Shown piece by piece: positions 5,215 to 46,890 of a stretch of DNA of 64,000 nucleotides; positions within the stretch are counted from its first letter, which is position 1; every line of letters begins with the position of its first letter. The stretch lies in assembly GCA_963734115.1 (NCBI GenBank), contig CAVTFV010000008.1, forward strand, positions 211,581 through 275,580, read 5' to 3'. Source of the DNA: an uncultured Acidobacteriota bacterium. Lineage in GTDB: Bacteria; Actinomycetota; Acidimicrobiia; Spongiisociales; ZC4RG35. The notes under the pieces are model-generated. The model ran no database searches. It was not told the origin of the DNA and saw nothing but the letters and a program-made list of their open reading frames with translations. The position numbers and the translations under genes are program-made.

Positions 5215-5230
5215 TTAGCTTGGCGTAGCA

Positions 5231-12544: not shown

Positions 12545-12554
12545 TAACGCGGAG

Positions 12555-12570
12555 TATAACGAGTGTTATA
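12555..12570. promoter_or_regulatory. inverted repeat TATAAC-GAGT-GTTATA in the tetR / Mo-oxidoreductase divergent intergenic region; candidate TetR operator
   Basis: Perfect 6-bp arms with a 4-nt spacer in a 60-bp divergent promoter region. Confidence 0.35.
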
Positions 12571-12605
12571 GCGGAAGTGTAGAGCAGTCATCAACGAGGA
12601 AGGTC

Positions 12606-24852: not shown

Positions 24853-25929
24853 TTATTCGTCCTCGGGTCGTTGCTTGTGGACCCTTCCCTCGATCCCGTG
24901 GAGCGAGAGACCGGTGCCATGTCCATAGCGAACCATGGTCATCTCGGCCAGGATGGAGACCGCCACCTCCTGCGGGCTCTCGGCGCCGATATCTAGGCCT
25001 ACCGGGCCCCGCACACGGGCTATGTCCTCCTCCGAGAAACCCATCTCATGCAGTCGCCCGACTCTGAGATCCTGCGTTCGACGGCTCCCCATGCATCCGA
25101 TGTAGCGCACCGGGCTCTTCAGACGCGGCCTCCAGCACCGGGTCTTCGTGGGGCGGGGCATGAGACAGGATGACCACCCATGTACGCCGATCGAGATCGA
25201 CTTGGCCGATGACCCTCTCCGGCCACCCGACCAGGACCCGGGCGGTAGGGAAGCGCTCCGGTGTGGCGAAGGCGCCCCGCGAGTCGATCACCGTCACCCG
25301 GTAGCCCATCTGGCCGGCGAAGTTGGCGAGAGCCTGACCGATATGGACCGCGCCCACGATCAGCATCTCCTGGGGCGGGGCGAGCGACTCGATGAACACC
25401 CCATGGGGTGGGTACTCCATGGCACGGTGCTGCTCATGATCCATGAGCACCAGGGCATCCGCCGTCACATCGGCGGCGATCTCCGATGGGAGCTCCCCGG
25501 ACACCTGCTGACCGGTGGAATCGAGAACCACCTTGGACCCCAATGATGGTCCGTCGACGAAGGTGACGACTGACCCGTACTCCTCGCGATCGAGGATGCC
25601 CTGGACCGCCTCGAGCGGCTTCACCAGGGCTCGATGAAGACGTCGATGGTCCCGCCGCAGGCCATGCCTACTTCGAAGGCGTCGTCGTCGGCGATCCCGT
25701 AGGTGACGGTCTTCGGCTTGCCCGACTCGATCACCTCTTGGGCGTGGAGGAAGACATCGTTCTCGACGCACCCGCCACTGACCGACCCTTCCATGTCTCC
25801 GGCATCCGAGACCAGGAACTTGGAGCCCTCGGGCCTGGGGGCGCTGCCCTGGACCCGGATCACCGTTGCGACGGCGACCTTCTTCCCTTCCGATGCCCAT
25901 CGGTTGCGCACTTCGATCTGATTTCTCAT
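24853..25929 (-). pseudogene. XdhC/CoxI-family accessory protein with two compensating frameshifts
   Basis: N-terminal domain (ORF 25621..25929, ...[12 protein letters not shown]). The middle Rossmann part (VKPLEAV...[29 protein letters not shown]) is in another frame. The C-terminal part ([10 protein letters not shown]...[19 protein letters not shown]) returns to the first frame. The first break maps to a C-run (FIEP-L-VKPLE is restored by adding one C). Confidence 0.7.
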
Positions 25930-27038
25930 CGCCTCGCTCCAGCCACTGAATCGAGCACCCGCACCACCCCCCGGAAGTCACTGACGCTAGCGGCGGGCAA
26001 TAGCCGATCGATGCTCGGCATCACCGCCTGCATGCCACGCGTCAGCGGCTGATATGAGGCCCTCGCCGCGAGGGGGTTGAGCCAGATCACCTGATGGACC
26101 GATCGGGCGAGTCGGGCCATTTCCGACGAGAGGACGGCGGGGTCGCCGCAATCCCAGCCGTCGGAGAGAATCATCACGACCGGGCCGCCCCTGGCCAGAC
26201 GACGGCTCCACCGTCGATTCCACTCGGCGAGAGCGTCACCGATCTGGGTCCCCCCCGACCAGTCGGTCACTCGATCGGCGACGCGGGCCAGTGCGGCCTT
26301 GGTGTCCCGACGGCGCATGTCCTCGGTGATGCGGCTGAGATGGGTGGAGAAGGTGAAGATCTCGACTTCACGCAGCCGACGCTGGGCAGCGTGGGCGAAT
26401 ACGAGGAATATGTCGGCGTACTTCTCCATCGACCCGGAGATGTCGGCGATGATGATGAGGGGGCGCTCCTTCCGCCGGCGCTGCTTCCAGCTCATAGTCA
26501 TCATGTCCCCGGTCGGTCCCACCGCGTCCCGCAGGGTGCGGCGCAGGTCGGGCCTGACCCCATCGCCGGGTGTCCATCGCCGGGTCCTGTAGTCGGTGGG
26601 ATGCCACATCATCGTCATCACCAGGCGTCGCGCCTCCTGGAGGTCCTCGTCATCGAGATCGGCGAAATCCCTGGTTGAGATCCTCTCCACCGCCGAGGCG
26701 CCACCCTGGTCGGTGACCGGCGCCACGCTGGACCCGGCCGAGCCCTGGATCGCATAACTCGACGCGTCGGTGCCCGGCTCATCCGGGTGCCGGTCGACCC
26801 ATGATGGCAGGAGGCGCCCGAAGAAGATCTCGAACTCCCGGTCGAACACCGGGATCTGATCGGGGTCGGTGACGGTCAACGAGCGCAGAGCGGCTTCGGC
26901 CTGCGACCGCCGGCTCATGTCGACCATGGAGAGGGCGCGGGCCATGTCGGTGGTCTGGTCGGAGGTGACCGTGAGACCGCGATTACGCAGGGCCGCTGAG
27001 AAGAGACTCAATTGGTCGATCAGCCCGGGCCGGCTCAT
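25926..27038 (-). CDS. coxE: VWA-domain CoxE-like accessory protein
   Basis: DISGSM MIDAS motif, C-terminal VWA. The start ATG overlaps the coxD stop (ATGA). Confidence 0.85.
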
Positions 27039-27913
27039 CCCACCAAGCTGTCGACTCCGGCGGACCGGACCATGTCGATGTCGTCCTTGTACTTGAGCAC
27101 GACGCCGATCGTGCGGTCGATCGTTGCCGGAGACAGCTCGCCCGCCTCCAGCAAACGCAACGACTCTGCCCAATCGAGTGTTTCTGCCACTCCGGGGGGC
27201 TTGAAGAGCTCCATCTCCCTGAGCCTCCTCATCGCCTCGGCCAGAGATACCGCCAGACGCCCCTCGAGATCGGGCACCTTGCGGATGATGATCTCGGCCT
27301 CCTTGGCCGCGGTTGGATAGTCGATCCAGTGATACACACAACGACGTTTGAGGGCGTCGTGTATCTCCCGGGTGCGGTTCGACGTGAGGACGACGATCGG
27401 CCTGCTCAGTGCCTTGATCGTTCCGATCTCGGGAATCGTTATCTGGAAATCGGACAGCAACTCGAGGAGAAAGGCCTCGAACTCCTCGTCCGCCCGGTCC
27501 AACTCGTCGATGAGAAGCACCGGACGGTGCCCCTCGGTGCTGGCCTCGATCGCCTGGAGCAGGGGACGAGCGATCAGGTAGTCCCGACTCATTATGTCGT
27601 CGGGGGTGGCTTCAGCGCCCTGTCCCCTTGCCTCGAGAAGGCGGATCGCCATCATCTGGCGGGCGTAATCCCACTCGTATAGCGCCTGGCCGACGTCCAG
27701 ACCCTCATAGCACTGGAGACGGATGAGCTCGGTCCCGCCCATGGCCGCCAGGACCTTGGCCACCTCGGTCTTGCCAACTCCGGCCTCCCCCTCCAGGAAA
27801 AGCGGTCTCCCCAGTTGAACTGCGAGGTGGATGGCCACTACGAGGCTCTCGTTGGCGAAGTAGTCCTGCTCGTCGAGACGTTTCTCGAGCTCGCCGATCG
27901 TGTCGGGGATCAC
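27035..27913 (-). CDS. coxD: MoxR-family AAA+ ATPase (CoxD-like)
   Basis: Walker A GEAGVGKT, Walker B LLIDELDRAD, and the MoxR C-terminal domain. Confidence 0.9.
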   Translation of the reverse strand: MIPDTIGELEKRLDEQDYFANESLVVAIHLAVQLGRPLFLEGEAGVGKTEVAKVLAAMGGTELIRLQCYEGLDVGQALYEWDYARQMMAIRLLEARGQGAEATPDDIMSRDYLIARPLLQAIEASTEGHRPVLLIDELDRADEEFEAFLLELLSDFQITIPEIGTIKALSRPIVVLTSNRTREIHDALKRRCVYHWIDYPTAAKEAEIIIRKVPDLEGRLAVSLAEAMRRLREMELFKPPGVAETLDWAESLRLLEAGELSPATIDRTIGVVLKYKDDIDMVRSAGVDSLVG

Positions 27914-27948: not shown

Positions 27949-28872
27949 GTGTACGGGGTGGCGCTCACGGTTCTCGCCTGTCTCCGCTCGGGAACCCGCG
28001 CCGACGTGGCGTGGCTGGTCGAGGCGGAAGGATTGCCCGTGACGGACTGGTCCGATGCAGTCGTGTTCACCCCTGGCGGCGGCCGGATCGGAGGATTGGC
28101 GGGCGGCGCAGTGGATGGGCAGCTGGCCGACGAGGCGGGTCGAAGGGACGTCGGTCGACTGGTCGATATCGAGGTGAGCGAGATCGACGCCTTGATCGCC
28201 GGCCTGTCGTCGGCCGGCTCCGCAAGATGCCTGCTCGTGCCGGCAGACACGCTTCCTCGAGAACTCTGGGACCTGGCGGTCGCACGGGAGCCGATCTGTC
28301 TGATCTGCAATGTCGAAGGCGGCGAAGTGGGAGACGTCAGCGTCTACACGACCGCCACGGCGGCGGGTGGCGGGGAAATCGTCGAGGGTTTGTTCGCTGC
28401 CGGCAAGAGCGGGTCGACAGTCACCGGAGATCAGGTGATCTCTGTGTTTCGGGCAGTGCCTCAGTTGGTCGTGGTGGGGGACACCGACGTCGCCACCGCT
28501 CTGGTCGAGCTGGCATCCCGGATCGGCTGGAACGCCCGCCTGGCGGCCGACTCCGGTTCGGCCACCGGCATGATCGCCACGCTGTCGGGTCAGGACAAGG
28601 TCGTGGTGACCGCGCACGATCTCGAGTTTGCGGGGACTGCGCTCAAGGCTGCCCTGGAGAGCGATGCCGGCTACATCGGGGCGATGGGCGCTCGACGGAT
28701 GCAGGAGAACCGTGCCGACTGGCTCGCCTACCGGGGGGTGACGGATCTCTCTCGAATCCATGGTCCCGCCGGACTCGACATCGGCGCCGAAACACCGGCC
28801 GAGATCGCTGTCTCGATCCTCGCCGAAGCGATCGCAGAGAACGCTGGGAATCATGTCGTTTCCAGCAGCTAG
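27949..28872 (+). CDS. XdhC/CoxI-family molybdoenzyme maturation factor (intact)
   Basis: 307 aa with the C-terminal YIGAMGARRM...GLDIGAETPAEIAVSILAE signature. Divergent from coxD. Confidence 0.85.
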   Translation: MYGVALTVLACLRSGTRADVAWLVEAEGLPVTDWSDAVVFTPGGGRIGGLAGGAVDGQLADEAGRRDVGRLVDIEVSEIDALIAGLSSAGSARCLLVPADTLPRELWDLAVAREPICLICNVEGGEVGDVSVYTTATAAGGGEIVEGLFAAGKSGSTVTGDQVISVFRAVPQLVVVGDTDVATALVELASRIGWNARLAADSGSATGMIATLSGQDKVVVTAHDLEFAGTALKAALESDAGYIGAMGARRMQENRADWLAYRGVTDLSRIHGPAGLDIGAETPAEIAVSILAEAIAENAGNHVVSSS

Positions 28873-28937
28873 CCATGGAGTACACAGGTGACCGTCACTA
28901 CACTCGATGATGGACGAGACCTTCCCGGGAGGACTGG

Positions 28938-29189
28938 ATGACCGCCCAATACGAGACCACGGCAGAGGCCCTGAAGTCGATTTGGATCAGCAGTCACGAC
29001 CACGACCCGCTCGACGAGGACTGCAGCCCCACCAAGGCCTGTCGCAACATGAAAGACGTCACATTCGACGGTTATGCCGAGCCGGGCACTGACCTCGGCG
29101 CCGCCTGGCGGGCCAAGCTGGCGCGGGAGGGAAAGCTGTCCACGTCCGGGGGGAGTGTCCGCGACCTGATCCTCGGTCAGGGCGAATAG
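28938..29189 (+). CDS. hypothetical small protein (83 aa)
   Basis: ATG-initiated ORF between xdhC and the second MoxR gene. I do not recognise a domain. Confidence 0.4.
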   Translation: MTAQYETTAEALKSIWISSHDHDPLDEDCSPTKACRNMKDVTFDGYAEPGTDLGAAWRAKLAREGKLSTSGGSVRDLILGQGE

Positions 29190-29230
29190 CCCTGGGCAAC
29201 GACGACCTCTCACCCACGCGGGATCACGCC

Positions 29231-30121
29231 GTGAGCGCCGATGGGGCATCCACACCGCCTGCGAGCGTCGATGAGGTGATCGCGCGTCTCGGCGAGGGTC
29301 GCTATCTGGCCGACCGCGGCCTGGCCACCGCCGTCTACGTCGCGCTGACACTGGGTCGCCCGCTCCTCCTCGAAGGTGAAGTGGGAGTGGGCAAGACAGA
29401 AGTGGCCAAGGTTCTGGCCACGGTCCTGGGGCGCCGCCTCATCCGTCTCCAGTGCTACGAGGGGATAGACACCAACCAGGCCCTCTACGAGTGGGACTAC
29501 GCCCGACAGATGCTCCAGATCAGGGCGCTGTCGGAACGCGAGCTGGCCGAAGACCATGTCGACAAGCTCTTCGGACCCAAATTCCTGCTCGAGCGTCCGC
29601 TGCTGACCGCGGTCAGGGAAGGTGACCGGGCGGTGCTGCTCATCGACGAGATCGATCGGGCCGACGACGAATTCGAGGCCTTCCTGCTCGAGTTGCTGTC
29701 CGACTATCAAATCACCATCCCGGAGATCGGCACTATCTCTGCCTCAGCCCCCCCGCTTGTCATCCTCACATCCAATCGCACCCGCGAGCTACACGACGCG
29801 TTGAAGCGGCGGTGTCTCTATCACTGGGTCGGATATCCGAGCGCCGAACGCGAAGTGGAGATCGTCCTGGTCCGTGCCCCTGGTGCCAGCGAAACCCTGG
29901 CCCGCAAGGTCGTCGCCGCCGTCGGCCATCTCCGCCAGCTCGATCTGGCAAAGCCACCCGGGGTTGCCGAGACGCTCGACTGGGTCGCCACTTTGAACGT
30001 TCTCGGCTCGGAAGACCTCGATGCCGGGACCGTGGAGGACACCCTCGGTGCCGTGGTCAAGGAGCGCGACGACCTCGAAACGGTCCTCGACCACCTCGAG
30101 GAGCTCGTCGCCGATGGCTGA
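29231..30121 (+). CDS. MoxR-family AAA+ ATPase, second copy
   Basis: Walker A GEVGVGKT, Walker B LLIDEIDRAD. About 60% identical to the first copy by eye. Confidence 0.9.
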   Translation: MSADGASTPPASVDEVIARLGEGRYLADRGLATAVYVALTLGRPLLLEGEVGVGKTEVAKVLATVLGRRLIRLQCYEGIDTNQALYEWDYARQMLQIRALSERELAEDHVDKLFGPKFLLERPLLTAVREGDRAVLLIDEIDRADDEFEAFLLELLSDYQITIPEIGTISASAPPLVILTSNRTRELHDALKRRCLYHWVGYPSAEREVEIVLVRAPGASETLARKVVAAVGHLRQLDLAKPPGVAETLDWVATLNVLGSEDLDAGTVEDTLGAVVKERDDLETVLDHLEELVADG

Positions 30122-31265
30122 ACAGTCGATCGCGGTTGATGACCGGACGTCTTTCATAGGGATGCTGGTCGGCTTCGGGGACGAGCTGCGGGACGCTGGA
30201 GTCCCGGTCGGCTCGGGAGATGTCCTCACCTATTGCGCAGCGATGGCGTTGCTCGACCCGGGCGATGTCCTCGATCTCTACTGGGCCGGCCGAACCTCGC
30301 TGGTGACACGGCGGGATCACATCCCGACATACGACCGTGTGTTCCGTACCTATTTCCTCGACCAACCTGCGAAGCCGAAGGGTCCGGCCCTCGCGATTCT
30401 GAAGCAGTCGCTCATCGAGAACCAATCGGTGATCGAGGTACCCGCCGCCGAGCCGGCACGGCCGGGCAAGGAGGAGGAGGCACGACTCGGGCTGATGGCC
30501 TCCGACATCGAGATCTGGCGGAACAAGGCATTCGCCGCCTGCACCGATGAGGAGCTCGCGGCGTTGCGCCGGATCATGAACCAGGTCAAAGTGATCCCAC
30601 CCCGACGACGCTCCCGACGAACGACCCAGTCTCGGTCCGGGAGCAGACCCGACCTTCGTCGCACCGTCCGCACCACGATGCGCACTCATGGCGAGCCCTC
30701 GGAGTTGTTTTGGCGACAGCGACGGCTTAAGACGCGACCGTTGGTCCTCATCCTCGATGTGTCGGGCTCGATGGCCGATTACTCCCGCAACCTCCTCCAG
30801 TTTGCCTATTCGACCCGGCGGGCTGCCACCAAGGTCGAGGTGTTCTGCTTTGGGACGCGGCTCACTCGCATCACGCGGGCCTTGGAGCGACGTCGCCCTG
30901 ACGATGCTCTGGACCAAGCGGCGAAGTCGGTCTTCGACTGGGAGGGCGGTACCCGGATCGGCGAATCGATCGACACCTTCGTCCGCCAGTGGGGTCGCAG
31001 GGGGATGAGCCGGGGAGCGATCGTCGTCATCTGTTCGGATGGGCTCGATCGTGGTGACCCGGCGGTCCTGGCCGCGGCCATGGAGCGGCTGTCCCGGCTA
31101 TGCCACAAGGTGGTGTGGATGAACCCCCACAAGGGCAATGACCCTGAGTTCAAGCTGACGACGCTGGGGATGATGGTTGCGGAGCCATACATCGACTTGC
31201 TTCTCTCCGGGCACGATCTGGCCAGTCTCGAGGAGCTCGCCGAGCGGCTGCCGGAGTTGAGGTGA
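30114..31265 (+). CDS. VWA-domain CoxE-like protein, second copy
   Basis: I placed the start at the internal ATG (MAEQSIAVDD), overlapping the MoxR stop by 8 nt. DVSGSM MIDAS motif. Confidence 0.85.
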   Translation: MAEQSIAVDDRTSFIGMLVGFGDELRDAGVPVGSGDVLTYCAAMALLDPGDVLDLYWAGRTSLVTRRDHIPTYDRVFRTYFLDQPAKPKGPALAILKQSLIENQSVIEVPAAEPARPGKEEEARLGLMASDIEIWRNKAFAACTDEELAALRRIMNQVKVIPPRRRSRRTTQSRSGSRPDLRRTVRTTMRTHGEPSELFWRQRRLKTRPLVLILDVSGSMADYSRNLLQFAYSTRRAATKVEVFCFGTRLTRITRALERRRPDDALDQAAKSVFDWEGGTRIGESIDTFVRQWGRRGMSRGAIVVICSDGLDRGDPAVLAAAMERLSRLCHKVVWMNPHKGNDPEFKLTTLGMMVAEPYIDLLLSGHDLASLEELAERLPELR

Positions 31266-31269
31266 GCCA

Positions 31270-31563
31270 GTGAGATGGAGTGTCTCCCTCCAGACCGAGG
31301 GTGATCGTGTGATCGAGCTAGACGAGGTGGTCGAGCTCGCTGACGCGGTGGCCGCCAGCGATGGGATCGCTTCGGGGATGGGCACCTATGGATACGGGGT
31401 CCAGGTCGTCGTTGAGGCCGATGACAGTGGTCACGCCGTGGAGCTGGCCATGGCGGTGCTCGCCGGGGCCGTGGAGAAGTCGGGTCTCCCGTCCTGGCCG
31501 GTGGTGACCATGGAGACCATCGCCGAGGACGAAGAGATGTTCTACGACATGGTCGAAGAGTGA
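31270..31563 (+). CDS. hypothetical small acidic protein (97 aa)
   Basis: The ORF lies 4 nt after the VWA gene. No recognisable motif. Confidence 0.45.
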   Translation: MRWSVSLQTEGDRVIELDEVVELADAVAASDGIASGMGTYGYGVQVVVEADDSGHAVELAMAVLAGAVEKSGLPSWPVVTMETIAEDEEMFYDMVEE

Positions 31564-31605
31564 TCCGTCTCGGATCGCTCGCCGGGTATCCCTTCGAGGG
31601 GCCGC

Positions 31606-32034
31606 GTGTTCTCGGGGGTTGGACCGCGCCGGAAGCGCCCGCCGTGTTTCGCGGTCATGTACAAGCCGGACCCGTCCCGTAAGCCCGAGGAGTACGGCGG
31701 TCCTCTACGTCGGGCATTCCGACGATCTCTCGACGCGAACGGCTCCCGTTCAACCACCCCAGCGCCGCATGCTGGCTCGAGCCGGGTGGGTGGGAAGAAG
31801 TTCGACCTCTACATCGGCACCTACGAGGCGCCCGGCGCCAACTCTGCGGCACCGCGAGCAGATCGTCCGAGAGCTGGTCGCGATCTACAAGCCGGGCTGC
31901 AACCCCGATCAGTACGACCAGGCCTGGGAGGATCACTGGATCGGGGATTACCAGACCCCGGGCACCACCGGCCCGCTGACGACTCGACGAGAGCCGCCTG
32001 GGGCCGGTGGCTGAAGATACCGACTAAGGCGTGA
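31606..32034 (+). pseudogene. decayed ORF with coding-like segments alternating between two frames and an internal repeat (AVMYKPDPSRKPEEYGG / VAIYKPGCNPDQYDQAW)
   Basis: ORFs 31606..32034 and 31619..32014 overlap in different frames. Each carries plausible segments (a YVGHSDDLSTR-like segment in one frame) and low-complexity junk in the other. Confidence 0.3.
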
Positions 32035-32876
32035 TCACCAGGGTGTCGAGAACGTCCTGCAACTCGGTCACGTCCTCCTCCGGTGACGATCCGGGCGCCC
32101 AGCTCGCCTCGATCATGACCGGGGTGCCCTCCACATCGAGGAACCAGTATTCGACCATATCGGCTGGGTCGTACCAACGCTCGTGGTCGAAAACGGGGCC
32201 CGTCCAGGCCGGTTTGACGTCACCGCCGCACCCGGCAGGCACCTCTCCGACCAGGTGGTACCCGTTGTGGCCGAAGGCATTGACCGGCGCCAACGCCTCC
32301 CGGACCGTCAATCCATTGGTGGCGATCTGGTTGGCCAGATCGGCCGCCGTCGTCCCCGCCGCCACCGGAGCGGTCGGCTCACATACCGATGACCACACCT
32401 CGTCGACCTCGACGACCAAAAGCGACAACAGAGTGCTCGCCGCCACCACCCTCTTTTAGCGCCCCGGATGAAAACACGTCCGTCCACCCGTCACCTTCGA
32501 TGACGAACGTGCCACGAGTCGCCGTCTCCTCGTTGCCGTCGGTGTCGGCGAAGTAGGCGCCGGGGGCGAGGGGCTGAAACTCGTCCGTCAGTTCAGTGGC
32601 ATTCGGGGCCGGCTCGGCCACCGAGGTGTCGTCCCTGGTCAAGAACAGGACGAGCCCTGCGACCAGGATCACCGCCGCCGCCGCCGCGATCCCGACCAGG
32701 GGGCCCCGCCGGCGATTGCGGTCCGCCTGGACCTCAGTCGGTCTGTCATCGATCTGCATTTCCGTTCTCCTCTCGAGAAGGGTCGTGAGGACGGGCACAT
32801 CCACAGGCTCGAGGGCGTTCAGGTCCGGCAGAGGATTTGCCTTGCGGACCATGCGATCGATCTGATCGTGTGTCAT
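32024..32876 (-). pseudogene. anti-sigma-like membrane protein with extracytoplasmic domain, copy 1 (one frameshift near 32440)
   Basis: MTHDQIDRMVRKANPLPD...TM helix (GPLVGIAAAAAVILVAGLVLFL) in the frame of ORF 32379..33437. The C-terminal domain continues in the frame of ORF 32024..32449. Total length is 3n+1. Confidence 0.6.
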
Positions 32877-33437
32877 GTCGCTCCTTCCTCGGCGACCGGA
32901 GGGGAAGGGATCGGCTTGATGAGGGGCTGGAGAGCCCGAGCGAGTCTCTGGTAGGAACGGTGGATTCTCTGGTCGACCGCGGACCTGGTCATGCCCATGA
33001 TCTCGGCGATGTCGTCCCTGGGCAGATCCTCCCAGGCGTAGAGCATCACGATCTCGCGGTCTCGTCGGGCTCAGGTTCCTAACCGCCGCTGCGACGTCGG
33101 CGTCGTCAGAGCTCTGGACGACGAGGAACGCCGGGTCGACCGGGGGAGCGACACCCAGGTTGCGCAACTTCTCGTCGAGACGTGATCTGCGACGAAAAGA
33201 TCGGGTGTGATTGGAGACCACCTTGCCCGCGATGCCGTAGATGTAGAGGAGGGTCTTGGGCGGCGGTGGAATCTCGTCGATCCGGCGCCATACCACCAGG
33301 AATATCTCGGCACAGACGTCGTCGGCATCGTGTGCTGCGACCCTTCGTATGCAGTAGGCGCGCACCTTCAGCGAGTGCTCGGCCCAAATCGCTTCGAAGC
33401 GAGCCCTCCGCTCCATGTCCACCGTCGTCGTCATCAA
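32873..33437 (-). pseudogene. ECF (sigma-70 family) sigma factor, copy 1 (frameshift between region 2 and region 4 near 33065)
   Basis: Region 2 (FLVVWRRIDEIP...LLYIYGIAG) is in one frame. Region 4 (DREIVMLYAWEDLPRDDIAEIMGMTRSAVDQRIHRSYQRL) is in another. The stop overlaps the anti-sigma ATG (ATGA). Confidence 0.65.
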
Positions 33438-33522
33438 TCAGTTCCTGTCCGGATACGACACCCCGTTGACAGGATTCTGTTCGAATCTCCACCCCTATGC
33501 CTGTAGGCGGGGATACAAATGA

Positions 33523-33552
33523 GGAACGGGTCGGCGTGTGCCGACCCGTTCC
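33523..33552 (-). terminator. perfect 13-bp GC-rich hairpin (GGAACGGGTCGGC-loop-GCCGACCCGTTCC) downstream of copy 2; candidate intrinsic terminator
   Basis: Sits in the roughly 150-bp spacer between copy 1 and copy 2, about 40 nt after the copy-2 stop. On the minus strand it is followed by UCAUUUGUAU. Confidence 0.4.
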
Positions 33553-33590
33553 GTGGATAAATCGATGGTGGCTGCCCGACTAGGGGGTGA

Positions 33591-34427
33591 TCACCAGAGT
33601 GTCGAGCACCGCTTGGAGCTCGGCCACATCCTCTTCCGGGGAGCTGGCGAACGAGGCCGCTTCGACCATGACCGGGGTCCCCTCCACATCGAGGAACCAG
33701 TAATCCACGACCTGACCGGTGCCTGGTAGAAGCGCCCGAATGTGGGTCCTTCCCAGACCGGGACTCTGGTCGCCCAGCGCACCCGGTAGGGATCTCGACC
33801 ACCAGGTGGTAGCCCGTCATGGCCAAAGGCAGTGACCGGTGCCAACGCCTCCCGGATTGTGAATCCAGCGGCGGCGAACTGGTTGGCCAGGGTCCTCCGC
33901 AGTCGATCCCGGCAGCCAGGGGTTCACCACCGCCACACGCCGGCGACCACACCTCGTCGACCTGGACGACCAGGAGCGAGACAAAGTCCTCGCCAAATGC
34001 CTTTCTCGCCCCCGCTGGCATGCGATGACCACCCGCTGTCTTCGATCACGAAAGTGCCTCCGAGCGACGACGCCTCGTCTCCGTCGGTGTCGACGAAGTA
34101 GGCGCCGGGCGCGAGCCCGAATCCATCTCGTCTGGGCTGATCCGGGTCGCATTCGGGGCCGGCTCGGCCACCGGGCGTGTTATCCTTGGTCAGTAAGAAG
34201 ACGAGCCCTGCGATCAGGATCACAGCCGCCGCCGCGATCCCGACCAGGGGGCCACGCCGGCGATTGCGGTCCGCCTGGACCTCAGTCCCGGGTCTGTCAT
34301 CGATTTGCATTTCCGTCCTCCTCTCCAGAGGGGTCGTGAGGACAGGCACATCGACGATCTCGAGCGTGCTCGGGTCCGGGATCGGGTTCACCCGGCGGAC
34401 CATCTCTCGGATCTGGTCGTGCGTCAT
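33591..34427 (-). pseudogene. anti-sigma-like membrane protein, copy 2 (heavily decayed C-terminal domain)
   Basis: MTHDQIREMVRRVNPIPD...TM in the frame of ORF 33924..34988. The C-terminal domain is fragmented across ORFs 33434..34021 and 33591..33845. Confidence 0.55.
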
Positions 34428-34988
34428 GTTCACTCCTTCCTCGGCGATCGGAGGGGAATTCAGTGAACTGATCTCCAGGACGGGCACCAGGGCCCGGGAG
34501 AGCTTTTGATAGGCGCGGTGGATCCGCTGATCGACGGCGGCCCTCGTCATGCCCATCACATCGGCGATCTCTGCCCGGGACAGGCCCTCCCAGACGTCGA
34601 GCATCACGATCTCCCGGTCGACGGGCTTGAGCCGTCGGACCGCGTCCGTCACGACCTTGTCGTCGGCGCGCTGCACGACGACGAGCATCGGGTCGGCGGC
34701 AGGCGCCATCCCGAGGTTGGTGAGCTTGGTGTGGAGACGGCCCCTTCGATAGAAGGCTCGCGATCTGATTCGACAGCGATTTTGCGGGCGATCCCGTAGA
34801 GACAAGGAAGGGTCTTGGGGGCCGGCGGTATCTCGTCGATGCGCCGCCACACGACGAGAAACGTCTCGGCGCAGGCGTCCTCCGCATCGGCCGACGAGGC
34901 GCGCCGCAGGCAATAGGCCAGCACCTGGTGCCGGTGTGCGCGCCAGATCGCCTCGAATCGAGACCTGCTGGTCGGTCTGCGAAGTCAT
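34424..34988 (-). pseudogene. ECF sigma factor, copy 2 (frameshifted; region 4 reads through into the anti-sigma frame)
   Basis: Region 2 is in ORF 34649..34924 (FLVVWRRIDEIPPAPKTL). Region 4 is in ORF 33924..34988 (DREIVMLDVWEGLSRAEIADVMGMTRAAVDQRIHRAY). There is no stop before MTHDQ. Confidence 0.6.
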
Positions 34989-35118
34989 TGCCCCTTAGTG
35001 TCCACCCGTGGTGGATCGCTGACGAGATTCTTGCTCAGATCTCGTGTCATGGGTCGCGGTCACCCGGACACAAACGGGTTGCCGGAACACCGGTCAGGTG
35101 ATCCGGAGGGGAAAGAGA

Positions 35119-35143
35119 TGGGCCGGGTCGGCCCCGGCCCATC
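35119..35143 (-). terminator. perfect 10-bp hairpin (ATGGGCCGGG-TCGGC-CCCGGCCCAT) about 35 nt after the stop of the last small membrane protein; candidate terminator of the cox operon
   Basis: GC-rich stem followed on the minus strand by CUCUUUCCCCUCC. Confidence 0.35.
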
Positions 35144-35176
35144 TCGACTAAGAGCACGGAGAGGATGCGACTCGAC

Positions 35177-35588
35177 CTACGAAGGCTCTGACGTATCGGC
35201 CAGGGGGGCGTGGGCCCTGCTCCCTGGGCCGTCCGGCATGTAGCCGATGGCGTCATGCAGACGTGAGCGGCGACGACCGGATGCGGGTACCGCCGGGCCT
35301 CGCTCCGGCACCGTCTCGGGGTCGTAGGTGGCCCCGACCACGATCTTCTCGGCCATCCCATATAGGAGGGGGAGTGCGGCTGCGACGACGCCTCCCGTGC
35401 GGTTCACGTGCTCGAGATTGCCTTCGATCGAAGCGGCGTTGCCGCCGATCTTCTGCACCAGGTCGTTGCACTCCTCGAGATTGGTGGCGATCCGGGTGAG
35501 CTGCCCCCCGACGATCCATAGATAGATCGCCAGCCCGGCGATGAGCAGGACGATGTCGACGACGGTGAAGATGCACCAGGTTGCTCAT
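35177..35588 (-). CDS. small single-pass membrane protein (DUF948-like architecture), 5th of a tandem array; 1-nt frameshift just after the start
   Basis: ATG at 35588 with AAGGTG 6 nt upstream, overlapping the previous stop (ATGA). Removing one base near 35570 gives MSNLVIFTVVDIVLLIAGLAIYLWIVGGQLTRIATNLEECNDLVQKIGGNAASIEGNLEHVNR, continuous with ORF 35177..35458. Confidence 0.5.
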
Positions 35589-35878
35589 GAGCGCACCTTC
35601 CCCAGCACCCGGCCCAGGAAGAGATGGTGCTCGAGACCCTCTGCGAGGACCAGGTCGACTCCGGCAGCAGTGGTGTTCAGCAGCTCGGCATCAGCGGTGT
35701 TGGCCTCGGCCTGGGTCAGGGTCGCTTTGATGTTCTTGACTCTCTTGTCGATTCTGTGGACGAGGAGCACAAGGATCGTGAGCAAGAGCGCTACGGCGAC
35801 CACGACGGCGAGGCCGGCCCAGTTGGCGATCCGCCACAGCGTCTCCTGATTCTCGGTCAGGGCAAAGATCACGGTCAA
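35585..35878 (-). CDS. small single-pass membrane protein (DUF948-like), 4th of array
   Basis: 97 aa with TM helix WAGLAVVVAVALLLTILVLLV followed by a polar helical region. Confidence 0.55.
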   Translation of the reverse strand: MTVIFALTENQETLWRIANWAGLAVVVAVALLLTILVLLVHRIDKRVKNIKATLTQAEANTADAELLNTTAAGVDLVLAEGLEHHLFLGRVLGKVRS

Positions 35879-36135
35879 CCTCCCAACCTCTGCCGGCCCC
35901 GCTTCAAACCCTCGATCACGTTGATCGCCATGGTGTTGGTGGTTGCCAGGTCGGCCAACGCCGCGGTGTTTCGCACCGACTCCTGGAGGCTTTCGTCGAT
36001 CAGCTGGGCCTCGTTCCCGATCTTGCGGGCCAGGACCAGGATCGGCACCACCAGCGCGACCACGACCAGGACGACGACGATCCCGATGATGTATCCGACC
36101 AGCCAGCCCGTGTTTCCCTCGAATAGTTCGCTCAT
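35875..36135 (-). CDS. small single-pass membrane protein (DUF948-like), 3rd of array
   Basis: 86 aa with TM helix WLVGYIIGIVVVLVVVALVVPILVLA followed by a polar helical region. The start overlaps the upstream stop. Confidence 0.55.
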   Translation of the reverse strand: MSELFEGNTGWLVGYIIGIVVVLVVVALVVPILVLARKIGNEAQLIDESLQESVRNTAALADLATTNTMAINVIEGLKRGRQRLGG

Positions 36136-36359
36136 ATCGATTCGCAGAAGTCGCTGACGGGCTTGAGGTTGGCGTTGACCGAGCCCACCACCGCGGGCAC
36201 CGTGCTGGTCTTGTCGGCCACCACTCCGACGCCGCCGGTGAGGGCCCGGAGCGTCCCGAGAGTGGCGCTGAGGTGGCCGATGACCCGCATCAGGCCGAGG
36301 GCCGCCGCGGCGATGATGAGTGTCGCGATCATCAGGGTCACGATTGCTGCTGCAGGCAT
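36132..36359 (-). CDS. small single-pass membrane protein, 2nd of array
   Basis: 75 aa with TM helix AIVTLMIATLIIAAAALGLM. Confidence 0.5.
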   Translation of the reverse strand: MPAAAIVTLMIATLIIAAAALGLMRVIGHLSATLGTLRALTGGVGVVADKTSTVPAVVGSVNANLKPVSDFCESI

Positions 36360-36374
36360 ATGACTCGTCCTCTC

Positions 36375-36629
36375 CTAACCCAGCAACTTCGCCACGGAGC
36401 CGGCGTAGCGGACTGCGCCGGTGGAAACGTCTTCGATCGCCTTGTCGGTGACCGCCAGCAGCTCAGGCACCCTGTCGACCTCGCCGATCAGGGCGACGCC
36501 ACCGCCGAGGATCTCATCAGAGGCACCCCTGATCCGCTCGAGAGCTGCCAGCACCCGATTGAGAAGTGCGACCAACACCGGCACCACCACCAGCAGCAGC
36601 ACCGCATTTCCGATCCACCACCAAGTCAT
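36375..36629 (-). CDS. small single-pass membrane protein (DUF948-like), 1st of array
   Basis: I placed the start at the internal ATG. MTWWWIGNAVLLLVVVPVLVALL TM helix followed by a polar region. It begins 10 nt after coxG. Confidence 0.55.
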   Translation of the reverse strand: MTWWWIGNAVLLLVVVPVLVALLNRVLAALERIRGASDEILGGGVALIGEVDRVPELLAVTDKAIEDVSTGAVRYAGSVAKLLG

Positions 36630-36639
36630 CAGCGCCTCC

Positions 36640-37221
36640 TCAGATCCGGTCGGGTTGGTAGGGGAGAAAGAACCGGCGCCCGACTCTCTTGAGCGCCATC
36701 CATGCCGCCGCGATGGCGATACCGAAGCCACTGGCGGATTTCGTCTGGATCTGGTCGGGTGAGACACCGCGGTCGTAGGCATCGATCCGCGTCTGCATGT
36801 TCGTGGCGAAGTCCCGCATCATCACCGCGCTCACGTCGCTGATCATGCCCCGCCCGTACTGCGCAGCGGCGCCGGACAACTCCAGGTCCTGCTCCACCTC
36901 CACCCTCGTTCCGTTGGCGGTGGGGACGAGGCGGGCAGTCAGCCCGAGGTTCGCCTGACCCCGGCCCTTGTCGTCGGCGCCCGAGGCGTCGACGACGATG
37001 GTCCTGTTGGCGTGATCGCGCTCCTTTACCGCGGCTTGTCCGGCGAATTGCATCTGGACTGGACCGAGCCGGATGCCGACATTCCCTGCGTATTGATCGG
37101 GGCCGATCTCGTCGGTGAGCGAGGCGCCAGGGAGACAGGCGGCGACCTGGGGGATGTCCTGACAGAACTCCCACACCTTGTCTACGTCGACCGGCACCTC
37201 GAAGTCATGTTTGATCAGCAT
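36640..37221 (-). CDS. coxG: CO dehydrogenase subunit G (SRPBCC family CoxG)
   Basis: 193 aa beginning MLIKHDFEVPVDVDKVWEF, with a C-terminal hydrophobic anchor. Confidence 0.85.
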   Translation of the reverse strand: MLIKHDFEVPVDVDKVWEFCQDIPQVAACLPGASLTDEIGPDQYAGNVGIRLGPVQMQFAGQAAVKERDHANRTIVVDASGADDKGRGQANLGLTARLVPTANGTRVEVEQDLELSGAAAQYGRGMISDVSAVMMRDFATNMQTRIDAYDRGVSPDQIQTKSASGFGIAIAAAWMALKRVGRRFFLPYQPDRI

Positions 37222-37222
37222 C

Positions 37223-38173
37223 TCATCCCCTGACTGTCATGTACGCGGAGGGGTCTTTCTCGAAGGCCGCCCGGCATCCCGGGCAGCAGAAGTAATAGGT
37301 CTGACCCTCGTATTCGAACGGGCGACTGCTCTCATCGGCAGGCACGGTCATGCCGCAAACGAGGTCTACGGCGGTGCCTGCGGCTGCGTGCTCATGGCCA
37401 TGACCGGAATGGTGGTGCTCGATGGGCATCGCGTTCGATTCCGCCAGGGGCGCGGGGTCGAAGGCACCCTTGGCCCGAAGCTCCACCAACTCGGCAAGAA
37501 CGGAGACTGCGATTTCGGGATGTGACGTGTGGCCGAGGTCGAGGCCTACGGGGACCCTCACTTGATCCAAGAGGTCACGGGGGACACCCCGTTCGGCGAG
37601 GTAGCCGAGGACCGCCTCGCCACGCTTGGACGAGGCTACGAGCCCCACGAAGGCCGGGCGCGCGTTCACTGCCTGCTCGACCGCCTCCTCGTCACCGTGA
37701 CCCTGAGTGGCGACCACCACGACCGACCAGCTGCCGACATGAGCGGTCTTGAAGTCGGGTACATCGACCAAGTCAGCGCGCCAGCCGACCCCGGCCGCAA
37801 GCTCCACCAGGGTGGCGGCCATTGGGGATCTGCCCACGACCACCAGGTGGGGGCTGGGAAGTACTGGCTCGACATAGAGCTGCAGCGCGCCCTCGGACTG
37901 GCACGACATCTGGACGAACGTCATGCCTTCGGCAACCTCGCCGAACTGGTCGGGGTCGCCGAGCAAGATCAGACGCGGGACCCGTTCTTCGATGGCGCGC
38001 TGCGCCTCCCGAACGACGACCGGCTCGGCACAGGCCCCGCCGATCCAGCCGTGCATCTGGCCGTCGGCAGTGATGATGGCCCGCGACCCTTGCTGCCCTG
38101 AGGAGGGCGCCTGGCGCCAGACCACGGTGGCCAGGGCGAATTCGACGCCCTGGCGGGCGAGATCGCTGGCCAT
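37223..38173 (-). CDS. XdhC/CoxF-family maturation factor fused to a C-terminal YHS (TRASH-like) metal-binding domain
   Basis: XdhC core (VPVGLDLGHTSHPEIAVSVLAE), a His-rich linker (HHHSGHGHEH), then CGMTV...YEGQTYYFCCPGCRAAFEKDP. The start has GGAGG 9 nt upstream. This gene was artificially joined to coxL in the 1183-aa ORF 37223..40774. Confidence 0.8.
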   Translation of the reverse strand: MASDLARQGVEFALATVVWRQAPSSGQQGSRAIITADGQMHGWIGGACAEPVVVREAQRAIEERVPRLILLGDPDQFGEVAEGMTFVQMSCQSEGALQLYVEPVLPSPHLVVVGRSPMAATLVELAAGVGWRADLVDVPDFKTAHVGSWSVVVVATQGHGDEEAVEQAVNARPAFVGLVASSKRGEAVLGYLAERGVPRDLLDQVRVPVGLDLGHTSHPEIAVSVLAELVELRAKGAFDPAPLAESNAMPIEHHHSGHGHEHAAAGTAVDLVCGMTVPADESSRPFEYEGQTYYFCCPGCRAAFEKDPSAYMTVRG

Positions 38174-38208
38174 CTCGATCATCCTCCACCCATCGGCAGG
38201 CTGGGCAC

Positions 38209-40593
<2,385 letters not shown>

Positions 40594-40597
<4 letters not shown>

Positions 40598-41118
40598 CCT
40601 TGATCCTCCAGCTTCTTTGCCGCCCACATGACCGCCTTGACGATGTTCTGGTAGCCGGTGCAGCGGCAGAGATTGCCGCTCAATGCCCATCGGATCTCGT
40701 CCTCGGTCGGGTTCGGGTTCTCCTCGAGCAGGGCCTTGGAGGCCATCATCATCCCGGGAGTGCAGAACCCGCACTGGAGCCCGTGCTCCTCCTTGAACCC
40801 TTCCTGTATGGCGTGCAGCTCACTGGGACCTGCCAGGCCCTCAACGGTCATCACGTCATGCCCGTCGGCTTGGACGGCGAACATCGTGCAGCTCTTCACC
40901 GGCGTGCCGTCGAAGAGCACGGTGCATGCCCCGCAGTTGGAGGTGTCGCAGCCGGTGTGGGTGCCGGTGAGATGGAATCCCTGACGGAGGAGATGGGCGA
41001 GGACGAGACGGGGCTCGACCACGGCTGTTCGGGTCTCGCCGTTGACCGTGACTGTGATCTGCCTCGTCGGCGTCTCCGCGGCCGCCCCCGGGCTGACCTC
41101 TTGGAACAGGCTGGTCAT
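40594..41118 (-). CDS. coxS: CO dehydrogenase small [2Fe-2S] subunit CoxS
   Basis: 174 aa with both cysteine clusters ([11 protein letters not shown] and [10 protein letters not shown]...CRCTGY). Confidence 0.95.
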
Positions 41119-41119
41119 G

Positions 41120-41995
41120 TCAGGCCGCCTCCTCTTCCGATCGAATCAACCCGGTCAGGATCCTGCTGGTGAAGACGCTGACCAGCTGCTTCTTGTAGGA
41201 GGCGCTGCCTCGATGATCGGTCCGGGGTTGGGCTGCCTGCGCCGCCAGCGAGGCGGCCTCACCGATCACATCGGCTGTGAGCGAACTGCCAACCAGCACC
41301 TGGGCGGCATCATCGGCTGAGATGGTCGAAGGACCCACTCCGGTCAGGCCAATGCCCGCCCTGGTGACCTCACGGCCGTTTCGGTCGACGGAAACGGCGA
41401 CCCCGACCGTGGCGAAATCGCCCACGCGGCGCTCCAACTTCAGATAGCCGCCAGCCGGCTCGCCCTGGGGGGCGGGAGCGATCGCCTCCACCACCACCTC
41501 GTCGTAGGCGAGGTTTGTCTGGAACGGGCCGCGGACGAGCTCCTTGACCGGGATTGTCCGCCGGCCACCTTGACCCTGTGCCACAACCGAGGCATCCAAC
41601 GAGACCATCACCGATGCCCAGTCTCCCTGTGGGTCGGCGTGACACAGGGAACCGACCAGAGTGCCGCGATTTCGCACGATCGGGTCGGCGACGAGTGGCG
41701 CCGCCGCAGCCATGGTGGGCTGATGGCCGGCCAGCAACGAAGAGCGCTCCAGGTCGGCGTGACGGCACAGCGCCCCGACGTGGATCGATCCGTCGGCATC
41801 GATCCGGTGATAGTCCAAACCGGCAATCTCGTTGATGTCGACCAGCATCTCCGGGGAAGCGAACCGGAGCTTGATCATCGGGACCAGGCTCTGGCCTCCG
41901 GCCAGCACCTTGGCATCGCCACCCCCGTCGGCCAGGAGCGCGGAAGCTTCCTCGATCGACCTGGGAGCCTCGTAGCGAAATCGAGAGGGGTAGAT
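41120..41995 (-). CDS. coxM: CO dehydrogenase medium FAD-binding subunit CoxM; probable ATC initiation codon
   Basis: FAD-binding motifs ([28 protein letters not shown]). The N-terminus (I)[20 protein letters not shown] aligns to M-I-P-G-S-F-D-Y... of characterised CoxM, so the ATC at 41995..41993 sits at the initiator position. AAGGAGG lies 5 nt upstream. There is no in-frame ATG/GTG/TTG for 75 codons upstream. Confidence 0.85.
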
Positions 41996-42015
41996 GTCTG
42001 CCTCCTTGGTTTGCT

Positions 42016-45067: not shown

Positions 45068-46403
45068 ATGTTCGACAGCCTGACCCAACGATTCGAGGAC
45101 GTCTTTGCCTCGCTGCGAGGAAAAGGGCGTCTCTCCGAGAAGGACATCGACGCTGCTTTGCGCGAGGTCCGTCTCGCCCTGCTCGAAGCGGATGTCAACG
45201 TCAAGGTGGTCAAGGACTTCCTGGCTCGGGTCAAGGAACGGGCCATAGGGGAGGATGTCTCCAAGTCGCTCTCACCGGGCCAACAGGTGATCAAGATCGT
45301 CCACGAGGAGTTGGTGAGAACCCTCGGCTCGGAGGCGGTGCCGCTGAAGAAGGCCGCCCCGCCACTGACCATCCTCATGGTCGGGCTCCAAGGCTCGGGT
45401 AAGACCACTACCGCCGGCAAACTCGCCCGTCTGCTCAAGAGCCAGGGCAAGAAGCCATTGCTCGTGGCGGCAGACCTGCAGCGCCCCGCCGCGATCGACC
45501 AGCTCGAAACTCTTGGTGGCCGTATCGACGTCCCGGTCTTCGTCGATCGCAAGGGCAAACCCGCGCGCCTGGTCAAGGCCGCATTGAAGGAAGCGACGCG
45601 GACAGGGCGTGACGTGGTGATCGTCGATACCGCGGGCCGTCTTCAGATCGACCAACAGCTGATGCGTGAATTGGACGATGTCCGGAAGTCCGCCGACCCC
45701 GACGAGGTGCTTCTCGTCGTCGATGCCATGACCGGCCAGGATGCAGTCAATGTCGCTTCCGGCTTCCAGGAGCAGGTTGGCCTCACCGGCGTCGTCCTCT
45801 CCAAGCTCGACGGTGACGCACGAGGGGGGGCCGCGATCTCGGTGCGGGAAGTGACCGGGGCTCCGGTGAAATTCGCCGGCATGGGTGAGGGTCTCGACGA
45901 CCTCGAGCCGTTCTATCCCGACCGGATGGCCTCCCGGATCCTGGGCATGGGCGACGTGATGAGCCTGATAGAGAAGGCCGAGGCGACTTTCGACGAGGCG
46001 GAGGCGGAGAAGACCGCCAAGAAGCTGCAGAAGGGTGAATTCACCCTGGAGGACTTCCTCGCTCAGTTCCAGGCGATGAAGCAGATGGGGCCTCTCAAGG
46101 ACATCCTTGCTATGATCCCGGGTTCCGGTTCGCTCATGCGCGAGGTGGATGTCGACGACCGTGACCTGCGTCGCGTCGAGGCAATCATTCAGTCGATGAC
46201 TCCAGAAGAGCGCCGGAACCCAAAGCTCATCGGCGGCAGCCGAAAGCGCCGTATCGCTGTCCGGTTCGGGCACCAGGCCTCAGGACGTGAATCGGGTGCT
46301 CAAGCAGTTCGTCGACGCGCAGAAGATGATGAAGATGCTGGCCGGCGGCAAAGGGGCCCCCTCGTTGCAGGGTCTCTTCCCGGCACAGCGAACCAAGAGG
46401 TGA
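45068..46403 (+). CDS. ffh: signal recognition particle protein Ffh; single-base frameshift near 46258 in the M domain
   Basis: NG domain is intact ([15 protein letters not shown]). The true C-terminus, [50 protein letters not shown], is in the +1 frame. Removing one base from GCTGTCCGG restores it. This is an essential gene. Confidence 0.9.
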
Positions 46404-46407
46404 ATCG

Positions 46408-46890
46408 ATGGCCGTGAAGATGAGATTGATGCGGATGGGGAAGAAGAAGACCCCTTCGTATCGCGTCGTGGTGGTGGACGGCCGTGCGCCGCGTGATGGC
46501 CGCTACATCGAGCAGATCGGGCGGTACGACCCGCAGCAGGACCCATCGCTCGTCGAGATCGACAATGAGAAGGCCGCTTCGTGGCTGTCGAAGGGGGCAC
46601 AACCCACCGAGGCCGTCGAGAAGCTCCTCAACATCTCTGGGGCGATGAACACGATGAAGGTCCGCACCGGCCAGATCCACACCGTCGGCTCCACGCGCCC
46701 CGCGGCCGAGGAGGCCGCCAGTGGAGTCGCCGAGCCCGCTGCGGCTTCTGCCGCGGTGGATGAGCCGGTGGTCGAGACTTCCGCCTCTGAGGAGGCGGCC
46801 GACACCGAGACCCTGGCTGCTCAGGAGCCGGTAGTCGAAGAGCCGGTTGCCGAGGAGATAGCAGCCGACACGTCCAACGAGGAGGAGTGA
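46408..46890 (+). CDS. rpsP: 30S ribosomal protein S16 with acidic Ala/Glu-rich C-terminal extension
   Basis: [42 protein letters not shown]. Confidence 0.9.

Follow-up and report, generated by a model that had tools for sequence, protein, structure and literature searches.

Does the string of small genes behind an aerobic carbon monoxide (CO) dehydrogenase in an uncultured actinobacterium belong to the enzyme, and is the enzyme itself intact? The question is raised by a stretch of 64,000 nucleotides (contig CAVTFV010000008.1 of assembly GCA_963734115.1, positions 211,581 to 275,580 of the forward strand), called the window below, which carries a cox gene string at 35177-42000 on the minus strand, with its genes running from 42 kb towards 35 kb. 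Together with an open reading frame (ORF) just upstream, the string has 11 genes, in the order upstream ORF, coxM, coxS, coxL, xdhC-YHS, coxG and five small genes designated sm1-sm5. We hold with good confidence that this is a form-I CO dehydrogenase operon typical of its clade, that further maturation genes lie nearby and that the frame breaks found in it are most likely artefacts; our confidence is moderate for the role proposed below for the XdhC-YHS fusion and low for that of the small proteins.

Judged from its sequence, the enzyme is a typical form-I (Mo-Cu) aerobic CO dehydrogenase of the Acidimicrobiia/Actinomycetota type, an assignment that follows from the family score of CoxL, its closest PDB enzymes, the match of CoxG to 8uds, the gene order and the active-site loop. 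With its reading frame repaired, CoxL scores 1101.9 bits against the NCBIfam model TIGR02416 (aerobic carbon-monoxide dehydrogenase large subunit; cut-off 991.15), and its best PDB relatives are three form-I enzymes, 8uem, 1ffu (Hydrogenophaga) and 1n5w (Oligotropha), at 917-962 bits, with an approximately twofold gap to the next family, quinoline 2-oxidoreductase (449 bits). The nearest solved relative is the Mo-CO dehydrogenase of M. smegmatis (8uem_A, E 1.5e-288), likewise an actinobacterial form-I enzyme, and the window's CoxG, a predicted quinone carrier, matches the N-domain of M. smegmatis CoxG (8uds_D, E 5e-25; Pfam COXG 59.5 bits, cut-off 22.2). The loop VAYRCSFR of CoxL aligns with the VAYACSFR loop of 8uem, the two differing as AYRCSFR and AYACSFR; its cysteine is the residue that we take to be the Cu ligand. 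The order coxM-coxS-coxL, the AY(X)CSFR loop and coxD, coxE, XdhC-like and coxG neighbours are all present at the locus; form-II genes are reportedly ordered coxS-coxL-coxM. The form-I identity that the initial annotation had read from the loop is therefore borne out, together with the Pfam-backed succession of medium, small and large subunit genes. Scavenging of atmospheric CO as a trace gas by the host is plausible by analogy.

The organisation invites comparison with coxBCMSLDEFGHIK of Oligotropha (Afipia) carboxidovorans, which shares the coxMSL order, the VAYRCSFR loop, coxD (AAA+), coxE (VWA), the XdhC-like coxF and coxI, and coxG, and whose CoxL (1n5w) aligns with that of the window at 917 bits. 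In O. carboxidovorans coxL is succeeded on the same strand by coxDEFG, and the multi-pass CoxB, CoxC, CoxH and CoxK serve as membrane proteins. In the window, by contrast, XdhC and YHS make up one fusion protein, five single-pass proteins come after coxG, and the maturation genes form a convergent operon, beyond which lies a second set.

The initial annotation had called the downstream operon unusually elaborate, a description that does not survive comparison with related loci. A genome scan with CoxL retrieved 80 loci at 87-98% amino-acid identity, a sample in which lineages lacking the locus are invisible by construction. The relatives are mostly Acidimicrobiia metagenome-assembled genomes (MAGs), the nearest including MAGs with MFD isolate labels, and extend to Angustibacter, Planosporangium, Actinoallomurus and Micromonosporaceae. 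In the 57 loci whose sequence continues for at least 3.6 kb past coxL, on which the synteny of the sm genes, coxG and XdhC-YHS was counted, sm1-sm5 are all present in the same order without exception (57/57), coxG is found in 56 and XdhC-YHS lies between coxL and coxG in 50. One locus (L014, DATBMA010000033.1) alone has no coxG between XdhC-YHS and sm1; it keeps all five small genes. Because the same five small genes recur in order in every one of these loci, from Acidimicrobiia and several Actinomycetes genera, the operon is not unusual, and on the evidence of these sequences its layout is standard throughout the CoxL clade and no peculiarity of the window genome.

As a CO dehydrogenase locus the window adds little, form-I cox genes having already been reported in Acidimicrobiia. 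Its value is that it shows cleanly a gene string which does not vary among at least 57 Actinomycetota genomes and which holds eight conserved genes without family, structure or annotation, namely the upstream ORF, sm1-sm5 and ORFs of 97 and 149 amino acids (aa), besides the universal XdhC-YHS fusion. We found no description of the conserved small genes or of the fusion in the searchable literature, and term searches of PMC12202499 (Kropp et al. 2025), a report on M. smegmatis CoxG, returned no mention of small membrane proteins, of an XdhC-YHS fusion or of the upstream ORF. These genes are the only lead here that is worth following, with the small proteins as the only potentially new part: they are candidates for the membrane attachment of CO dehydrogenase and CoxG and for copper loading in atmospheric-CO oxidisers, and carriers exist in culture (Angustibacter, Planosporangium, Actinoallomurus, Pseudonocardia).

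The 11 genes probably form one tightly packed operon in which translational coupling is likely and which has a hairpin at its end. From coxS/coxL onward the successive junctions are -4, -4, +1, +10, +15, -4, -4 and -4 nt, coxM and coxS are separated by +1 nt, and the upstream ORF stops 20 nt before coxM; a single operon is consistent with these spacings and with the terminal hairpin. The structural genes are indeed followed by the XdhC-YHS fusion, coxG and five small single-pass membrane ORFs, as first annotated. The statement that they follow without gaps holds for the close packing and the several 4-nt overlaps but not for the junctions with gaps of 1-15 nt, and the terminal hairpin is there with a perfect stem of 13 bp rather than 10 bp. 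It begins 32 nt past the sm5 stop, its core is detected by a terminator scan, and it is kept in three of the relatives (L001, L002 and L013).

What, then, are the small proteins? Each of the five has one strong hydrophobic segment near its N-terminus (best 19-residue Kyte-Doolittle mean 2.5-3.5), with no Lys or Arg before it and such residues just after it (in sm3 the ARK lies just inside the scored window), a charge pattern from which an N-out, C-in topology is expected. Searches of sm1-sm5 against Pfam, NCBIfam and PDB sequences gave no significant match. The proteins sm3 and sm4 are paralogues (hhalign probability 97.1%, E 6e-11); common descent of all five was considered and rejected, since the other pairs score at most 32%. 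Among 69 loci sm1 is 65-99% identical, and it has 4908 clusters at 90% identity, 120 of which were listed, with no Pfam domain and 'hypothetical' as the only name given. For sm5 there are 163 clusters at 50% identity among 1.84 billion protein representatives, and no match in a plasmid collection. In an AlphaFold2 (AF2) model of sm5, residues 2-81 make up a single unbroken helix (pLDDT 85-98), and the disordered tail behind it bears a conserved RRSRLH..VGY motif; a Cys in NLEEC of the protein is conserved as well.

DUF948/YoxC (COG4768) and the single-pass stalk proteins of the ATP synthase b type are likewise anchored in the membrane at the N-terminus and continue as a long helix in the cytoplasm. 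A rival reading takes the small proteins for a general membrane or stress module of the DUF948/YoxC kind, which shares the transcript of the cox genes and has no functional tie to CO dehydrogenase. We regard this as unlikely, while noting that 145 sm family members give weak sub-threshold matches to DUF2561, DUF948 and ATP-synt_B, those to DUF948 (PF06103) occurring in 13 members at E <=1 (best 6.5e-4) and those to ATP-synt_B in 12, and that the distant homologues of sm5, most of which have a Pseudonocardiaceae label, are solitary genes remote from cox, some of them named YoxC or HAMP by JGI, so that the sm5 fold is not specific to CO dehydrogenase. None of these matches reaches the gathering score, and the Pfam scan of the window's own sm1-sm5 gave no DUF948 match. 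Unlike the DUF948, YoxC and ATP synthase b proteins, sm1-sm5 form a fixed set of five beside coxG, within which kinship can be demonstrated for sm3 and sm4 only. Against the rival reading, their colinearity with coxG spans two Actinomycetota classes, and the set stays together even in the 7 loci with a displaced XdhC-YHS and in L014, which has no coxG there; in addition, start and stop codons overlap, and the cox-linked type of sm5 keeps its own RRSRLH..VGY tail. A natural fusion of 325 aa (P0201) joins an sm5-like N-terminal module to a second transmembrane segment and a long helical repeat array of the 'IN.TA..I' type, which hints that the sm5 helix is part of a broader class of repeat-helix membrane proteins.

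The reading that we put forward instead, tentatively, is that sm1-sm5, possibly with the Pro/Trp-rich upstream protein, are undescribed subunits or partners of the actinobacterial form-I enzyme and form a helical stalk on which CoxG and CO dehydrogenase dock. It is drawn from the strict synteny with coxG, the overlapping start and stop codons, the shared topology and the long-helix model. In related enzymes CO is oxidised at the Mo-S-Cu site of CoxL, and electrons travel by way of the paired [2Fe-2S] clusters of CoxS to the flavin adenine dinucleotide (FAD) of CoxM; the same route is expected here, with the Cu held by the cysteine of VAYRCSFR. CoxG would carry menaquinone between the membrane and CoxM, and in the tentative scheme the small proteins, inserted N-out and C-in, would bundle their long cytoplasmic helices into a membrane-anchored stalk or dock for CoxG and CO dehydrogenase. 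In M. smegmatis, CoxG has been shown to extract menaquinone and to present it to CoxM (PMC12202499), and the same logic of CoxL to CoxS to CoxM to CoxG and menaquinone appears to be shared by the two systems. They differ in that M. smegmatis CoxG has a predicted C-terminal transmembrane helix (PMC12202499), whereas the C-terminal 19-mer of the window CoxG is only weakly hydrophobic (mean hydropathy 1.12, against 2.5-3.5 for sm1-sm5). If the dock exists, it would close the gap from the soluble enzyme to the respiratory chain. Besides the stand-alone sm5 homologues, it weighs against this reading that the case for the small proteins is built from synteny, topology and one monomer model, and our confidence in their role is low.

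The same genes can be viewed from the side of cofactor assembly. The XdhC-YHS protein matches Pfam XdhC_CoxI (5e-16) and XdhC_C (3e-22) over the gathering scores and falls below the NCBIfam equivalog cut-offs for XdhC (30 vs 161.6 bits) and for the AOR maturation factor (102.6 vs 350); on these scores it is a member of the XdhC family and not an XdhC or AOR-factor equivalog. It resembles the XdhC/CoxI/CoxF molybdenum-cofactor chaperones in its pair of XdhC_CoxI and XdhC_C domains and in the position of its gene directly after that of the large subunit, and differs from them in its sub-equivalog scores and in the added C-terminal YHS domain (49.2 bits, Pfam cut-off 30.3). XdhC and YHS are one ORF in 62/62 loci, and the cysteines of the VCGM...FCCxGC pattern are kept in nearly all the YHS tails shown from these loci, one reading FCA and one FCS. 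Of the 62 fused proteins only 6 contain a His-rich linker, and many of the rest have Cys as their last residue (...TRC, ...ATC). With moderate confidence, these features suggest a cofactor-insertion chaperone with a Cys-rich metal (Cu) binding domain of its own, which would join cofactor insertion to a Cys-rich metal site. It counts against this that the connection of YHS with Cu is one of domain annotation. No paper pairing a YHS domain with CO dehydrogenase or XdhC was found in the searchable literature.

In a further rival reading the small proteins, XdhC-YHS and the upstream ORF all act in maturation instead of docking or electron transfer, for example by supplying the apoenzyme with membrane-derived Cu or Mo. 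The conserved YHS/TRASH cysteines and the conserved Cys in NLEEC of sm5 agree with such a role, as does the situation in O. carboxidovorans, where CoxD, CoxE and CoxF build the S and Cu into the cluster and Cu insertion proceeds via membrane-bound CoxE and soluble CoxF (PMC4240915). However, sm1, sm3 and sm4 contain no conserved metal-ligand motifs, and dedicated coxD, coxE and XdhC-like genes are already there in two sets, and we regard this reading as unlikely.

Whether the enzyme is intact turns on the frame breaks. In coxL the window reads GTG CTG CAG GCT where 11 aligned relatives read CTG CGG/AGG CTN, which places one extra base at 38634; removing one base there restores the protein sequence of the relatives, and the two closest of these, L001 (~89-92% nucleotide identity) and L002 (85%), agree against the window. 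The single-base frameshift noted in the initial annotation is thus present in the sequence, but it is unlikely to be a biological feature, as it is one of approximately 19 single-base insertions that a three-way alignment with L001 and L002 finds in the window only, in non-homopolymer contexts and with no 1-nt deletions. A second, which the initial annotation lacked, breaks sm5 five codons past its ATG (35572) and is absent from the 9 relatives that align there. A third lies in ffh (46258), and its deletion restores a C-terminal tail identical to that of L001. Sixteen more cluster at 31649-34971, where they break two extracytoplasmic function (ECF) sigma/anti-sigma pairs and the conserved ORF of 149 aa; L001 has intact copies of all these.

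Two breaks in one operon, with many more in adjacent sigma/anti-sigma and maturation ORFs, and their clustered rather than uniform distribution, might be taken to mean that the operon is a decaying pseudogene cluster in which the coxL and sm5 shifts are real and the lineage has lost CO oxidation. We think this very unlikely. All events are insertions of 1 nt, with deletions of that size lacking altogether, and natural bacterial indel spectra do not look like this; ffh, an essential gene, is hit too. The codons of coxL after the shift have the same ratio of synonymous to non-synonymous differences from L001 as those before it (18/2 and 148/16), coxL and sm5 show no further lesions in the stretches that are shifted, and CoxL, once repaired, shares 98% identity with that of L001. 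A spectrum of insertions only, one of them in ffh, and a selection signal that does not change after the shift together make error in the sequence or its assembly the most likely cause of the breaks in coxL and sm5, rather than pseudogenisation; the insertions suggest local problems of sequence quality in the window and serve as a warning not to read such frameshifts as biology. Some observations pull the other way. The insertions are unevenly spread, with 16 in 31.6-35.0 kb, whereas smc and ppc (6 kb together) are intact, and there may be real local decay of the sigma/anti-sigma genes; the sequence as written would truncate CoxL before its C-terminal 142 codons (160 aa of 795), including the region of the GIGE glutamate, and a very recent real mutation in coxL may likewise be at play. 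An exact-pattern scan of metagenome contigs around the coxL shift, with and without the extra base, gave no match, so that no independent copy of the strain was found. Programmed frameshifting in coxL was considered and rejected, there being no slippery motif at GTG CTG CAG GCT, with the extra base absent from 11/11 aligned relatives and with CoxL residues 1-795 matched in 80/80 relatives by one unbroken tblastn stretch, over the full length or all but a few terminal residues.

The 5' end of the operon has two further features, both missing from the initial annotation. No ATG, GTG or TTG is found near the N-terminus of coxM, and the codon that aligns with the starts of its orthologues is ATC (41993-41995), 5 nt past an AAGGAGG. 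At the orthologous position in 70 loci the codon is ATG in 43, ATC in 21 and GTG in 5, and the ATC loci all fall within the Acidimicrobiia-dominated top 37, the half with higher identity; from this alignment ATC looks like a conserved non-canonical start codon of coxM. The second feature is the upstream ORF, which directly precedes coxM in 70/70 loci with enough flank and has 33 invariant columns, among them GNP, TxWxWP and GPWPPHQ.PRPDP. Its L001 orthologue has no match in Pfam or NCBIfam and nothing significant in a PDB sequence search, and its 1641 protein clusters have the name 'hypothetical' wherever one is given among the matches listed. AF2 models it at pLDDT 61 and pTM 0.30 as short helices with an extended Pro-rich tail, with which our guess that it is a partner-binding peptide would be compatible.

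Beyond this operon the cox system extends over approximately 25.0-42.3 kb, interrupted by the sigma/anti-sigma genes between two cox operons (Table 1). The convergent operon (XdhC-like, coxD, coxE, 97-aa and 149-aa ORFs) is found in ~58 loci, in which it usually abuts the sm5 gene; taken singly, coxD, coxE and the two ORFs each occur in 57-62 of the 80 loci. In the window the 149-aa ORF is broken by five of the single-base insertions (31649-31845). A second set of AAA+ (CoxD-like), VWA_CoxE and XdhC_C genes lies beside the first, so that the maturation machinery appears to be duplicated; both sets (25.0-31.3 kb) were missing from the initial annotation. The sigma/anti-sigma ORFs, which contain 11 window-only insertions, are carried by only 4 of the 80 loci.

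Table 1. Features of the cox region, by position in the window; hyphenated pairs at the hairpin are its two arms.
Feature	Position	Strand	Evidence and remarks
Upstream ORF, 100 aa	42318..42016	-	TTG start; GGGAGG Shine-Dalgarno; stop 20 nt before coxM
coxM	41995..41120	-	Pfam FAD_binding_5 (3e-43, from residue 5), CO_deh_flav_C (4e-22); FAD-binding medium subunit
coxS	41118..40594	-	Pfam Fer2_2 (7e-34), Fer2; [2Fe-2S] small subunit
coxL	40597..38209	-	Pfam Ald_Xan_dh_C, MoCoBD_1, MoCoBD_2; Mo-Cu large subunit; repaired product 795 aa
VAYRCSFR active-site loop	39502..39479	-	CoxL residues 366-373
Extra base (A) shifting coxL frame	38634	-	context CTGC[A]GGCT
XdhC-YHS	start GTG 38212 (overlaps coxL stop) or ATG 38182, to 37223	-	XdhC_CoxI, XdhC_C and YHS in a single ORF
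His-rich linker of XdhC-YHS (HHHSGHGHEH)	37417..37388	-	between XdhC and YHS domains
YHS part of XdhC-YHS	37369..37226	-	Pfam YHS 5e-13
coxG	37221..36640	-	Pfam COXG 4e-16; SRPBCC-type putative quinone carrier
sm1, 84 aa	36629..36375	-	predicted N-terminal transmembrane helix and cytoplasmic helical part
sm2, 75 aa	36359..36132	-	predicted single-pass
sm3, 86 aa	36135..35875	-	predicted single-pass; sm4 paralogue
sm4, 95-97 aa	35878..35585	-	predicted single-pass; C-terminus EGLxHHLFLGRVL conserved
sm5, ~136 aa	35588..35177	-	ATG overlaps sm4 stop; frame broken by extra base at 35572
Terminal hairpin	35115-35127 / 35133-35145	-	13-nt perfectly complementary arms, 5-nt loop, then TTTCCCC
Two ECF sigma/anti-sigma pairs	32024..34988	-	Sigma70_r2, Sigma70_r4_2 fragments; heavily frame-broken
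97-aa and 149-aa ORFs (L001 sizes) after coxE	31261-32010 (L001 18949-19688)	+	no Pfam or NCBIfam match
Convergent maturation operon	27949..32010	+	XdhC_C protein 27949-28872, coxD AAA+ 29231-30121, coxE VWA 30021-31265, two conserved ORFs (Pfam)
Second, divergent maturation-type set	25046..27913	-	AAA+ 27035-27913, VWA_CoxE 25926-27341, XdhC_C 25046-25981 (Pfam)

The position of the locus between ftsY and ffh is confirmed, smc and ftsY lying at 1756-6229 and ffh at 45068-46417. From this position it had been supposed that the locus is probably accessory, and the ~39 kb that separate ftsY from ffh, together with a CoxL clade that keeps at least 87% amino-acid identity between Acidimicrobiia and Actinomycetes genera, a hint of transfer in the deep past, could be read as a recently acquired island. 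Signs of recent acquisition do not appear, however. The GC content is flat at ~0.65 (0.63-0.68), tRNA and Rfam scans of the window are empty, the scanned ORFs of the ftsY-ffh block include no integrase, transposase or other mobile-element Pfam family, and the adjacency of cox and ffh is common to 13 relatives whose DNA is ~75-92% identical. We therefore consider a recent island most improbable and no longer describe the locus as probably accessory, with the reservation that relatives found through CoxL hide lineages without it. The ORFs scanned in the block gave ordinary metabolic matches (electron transfer flavoprotein, ppc, upp, arginine and cysteine genes, rhodanese). The block also holds some sulfur- and Mo-related genes with no apparent relation to cox, which encode a protein with a sulfite-oxidase-type molybdoenzyme domain (12405-13598, plus strand), a double-rhodanese protein (13604-14440, minus strand) and a CysK-rhodanese fusion (18333-19670, minus strand).

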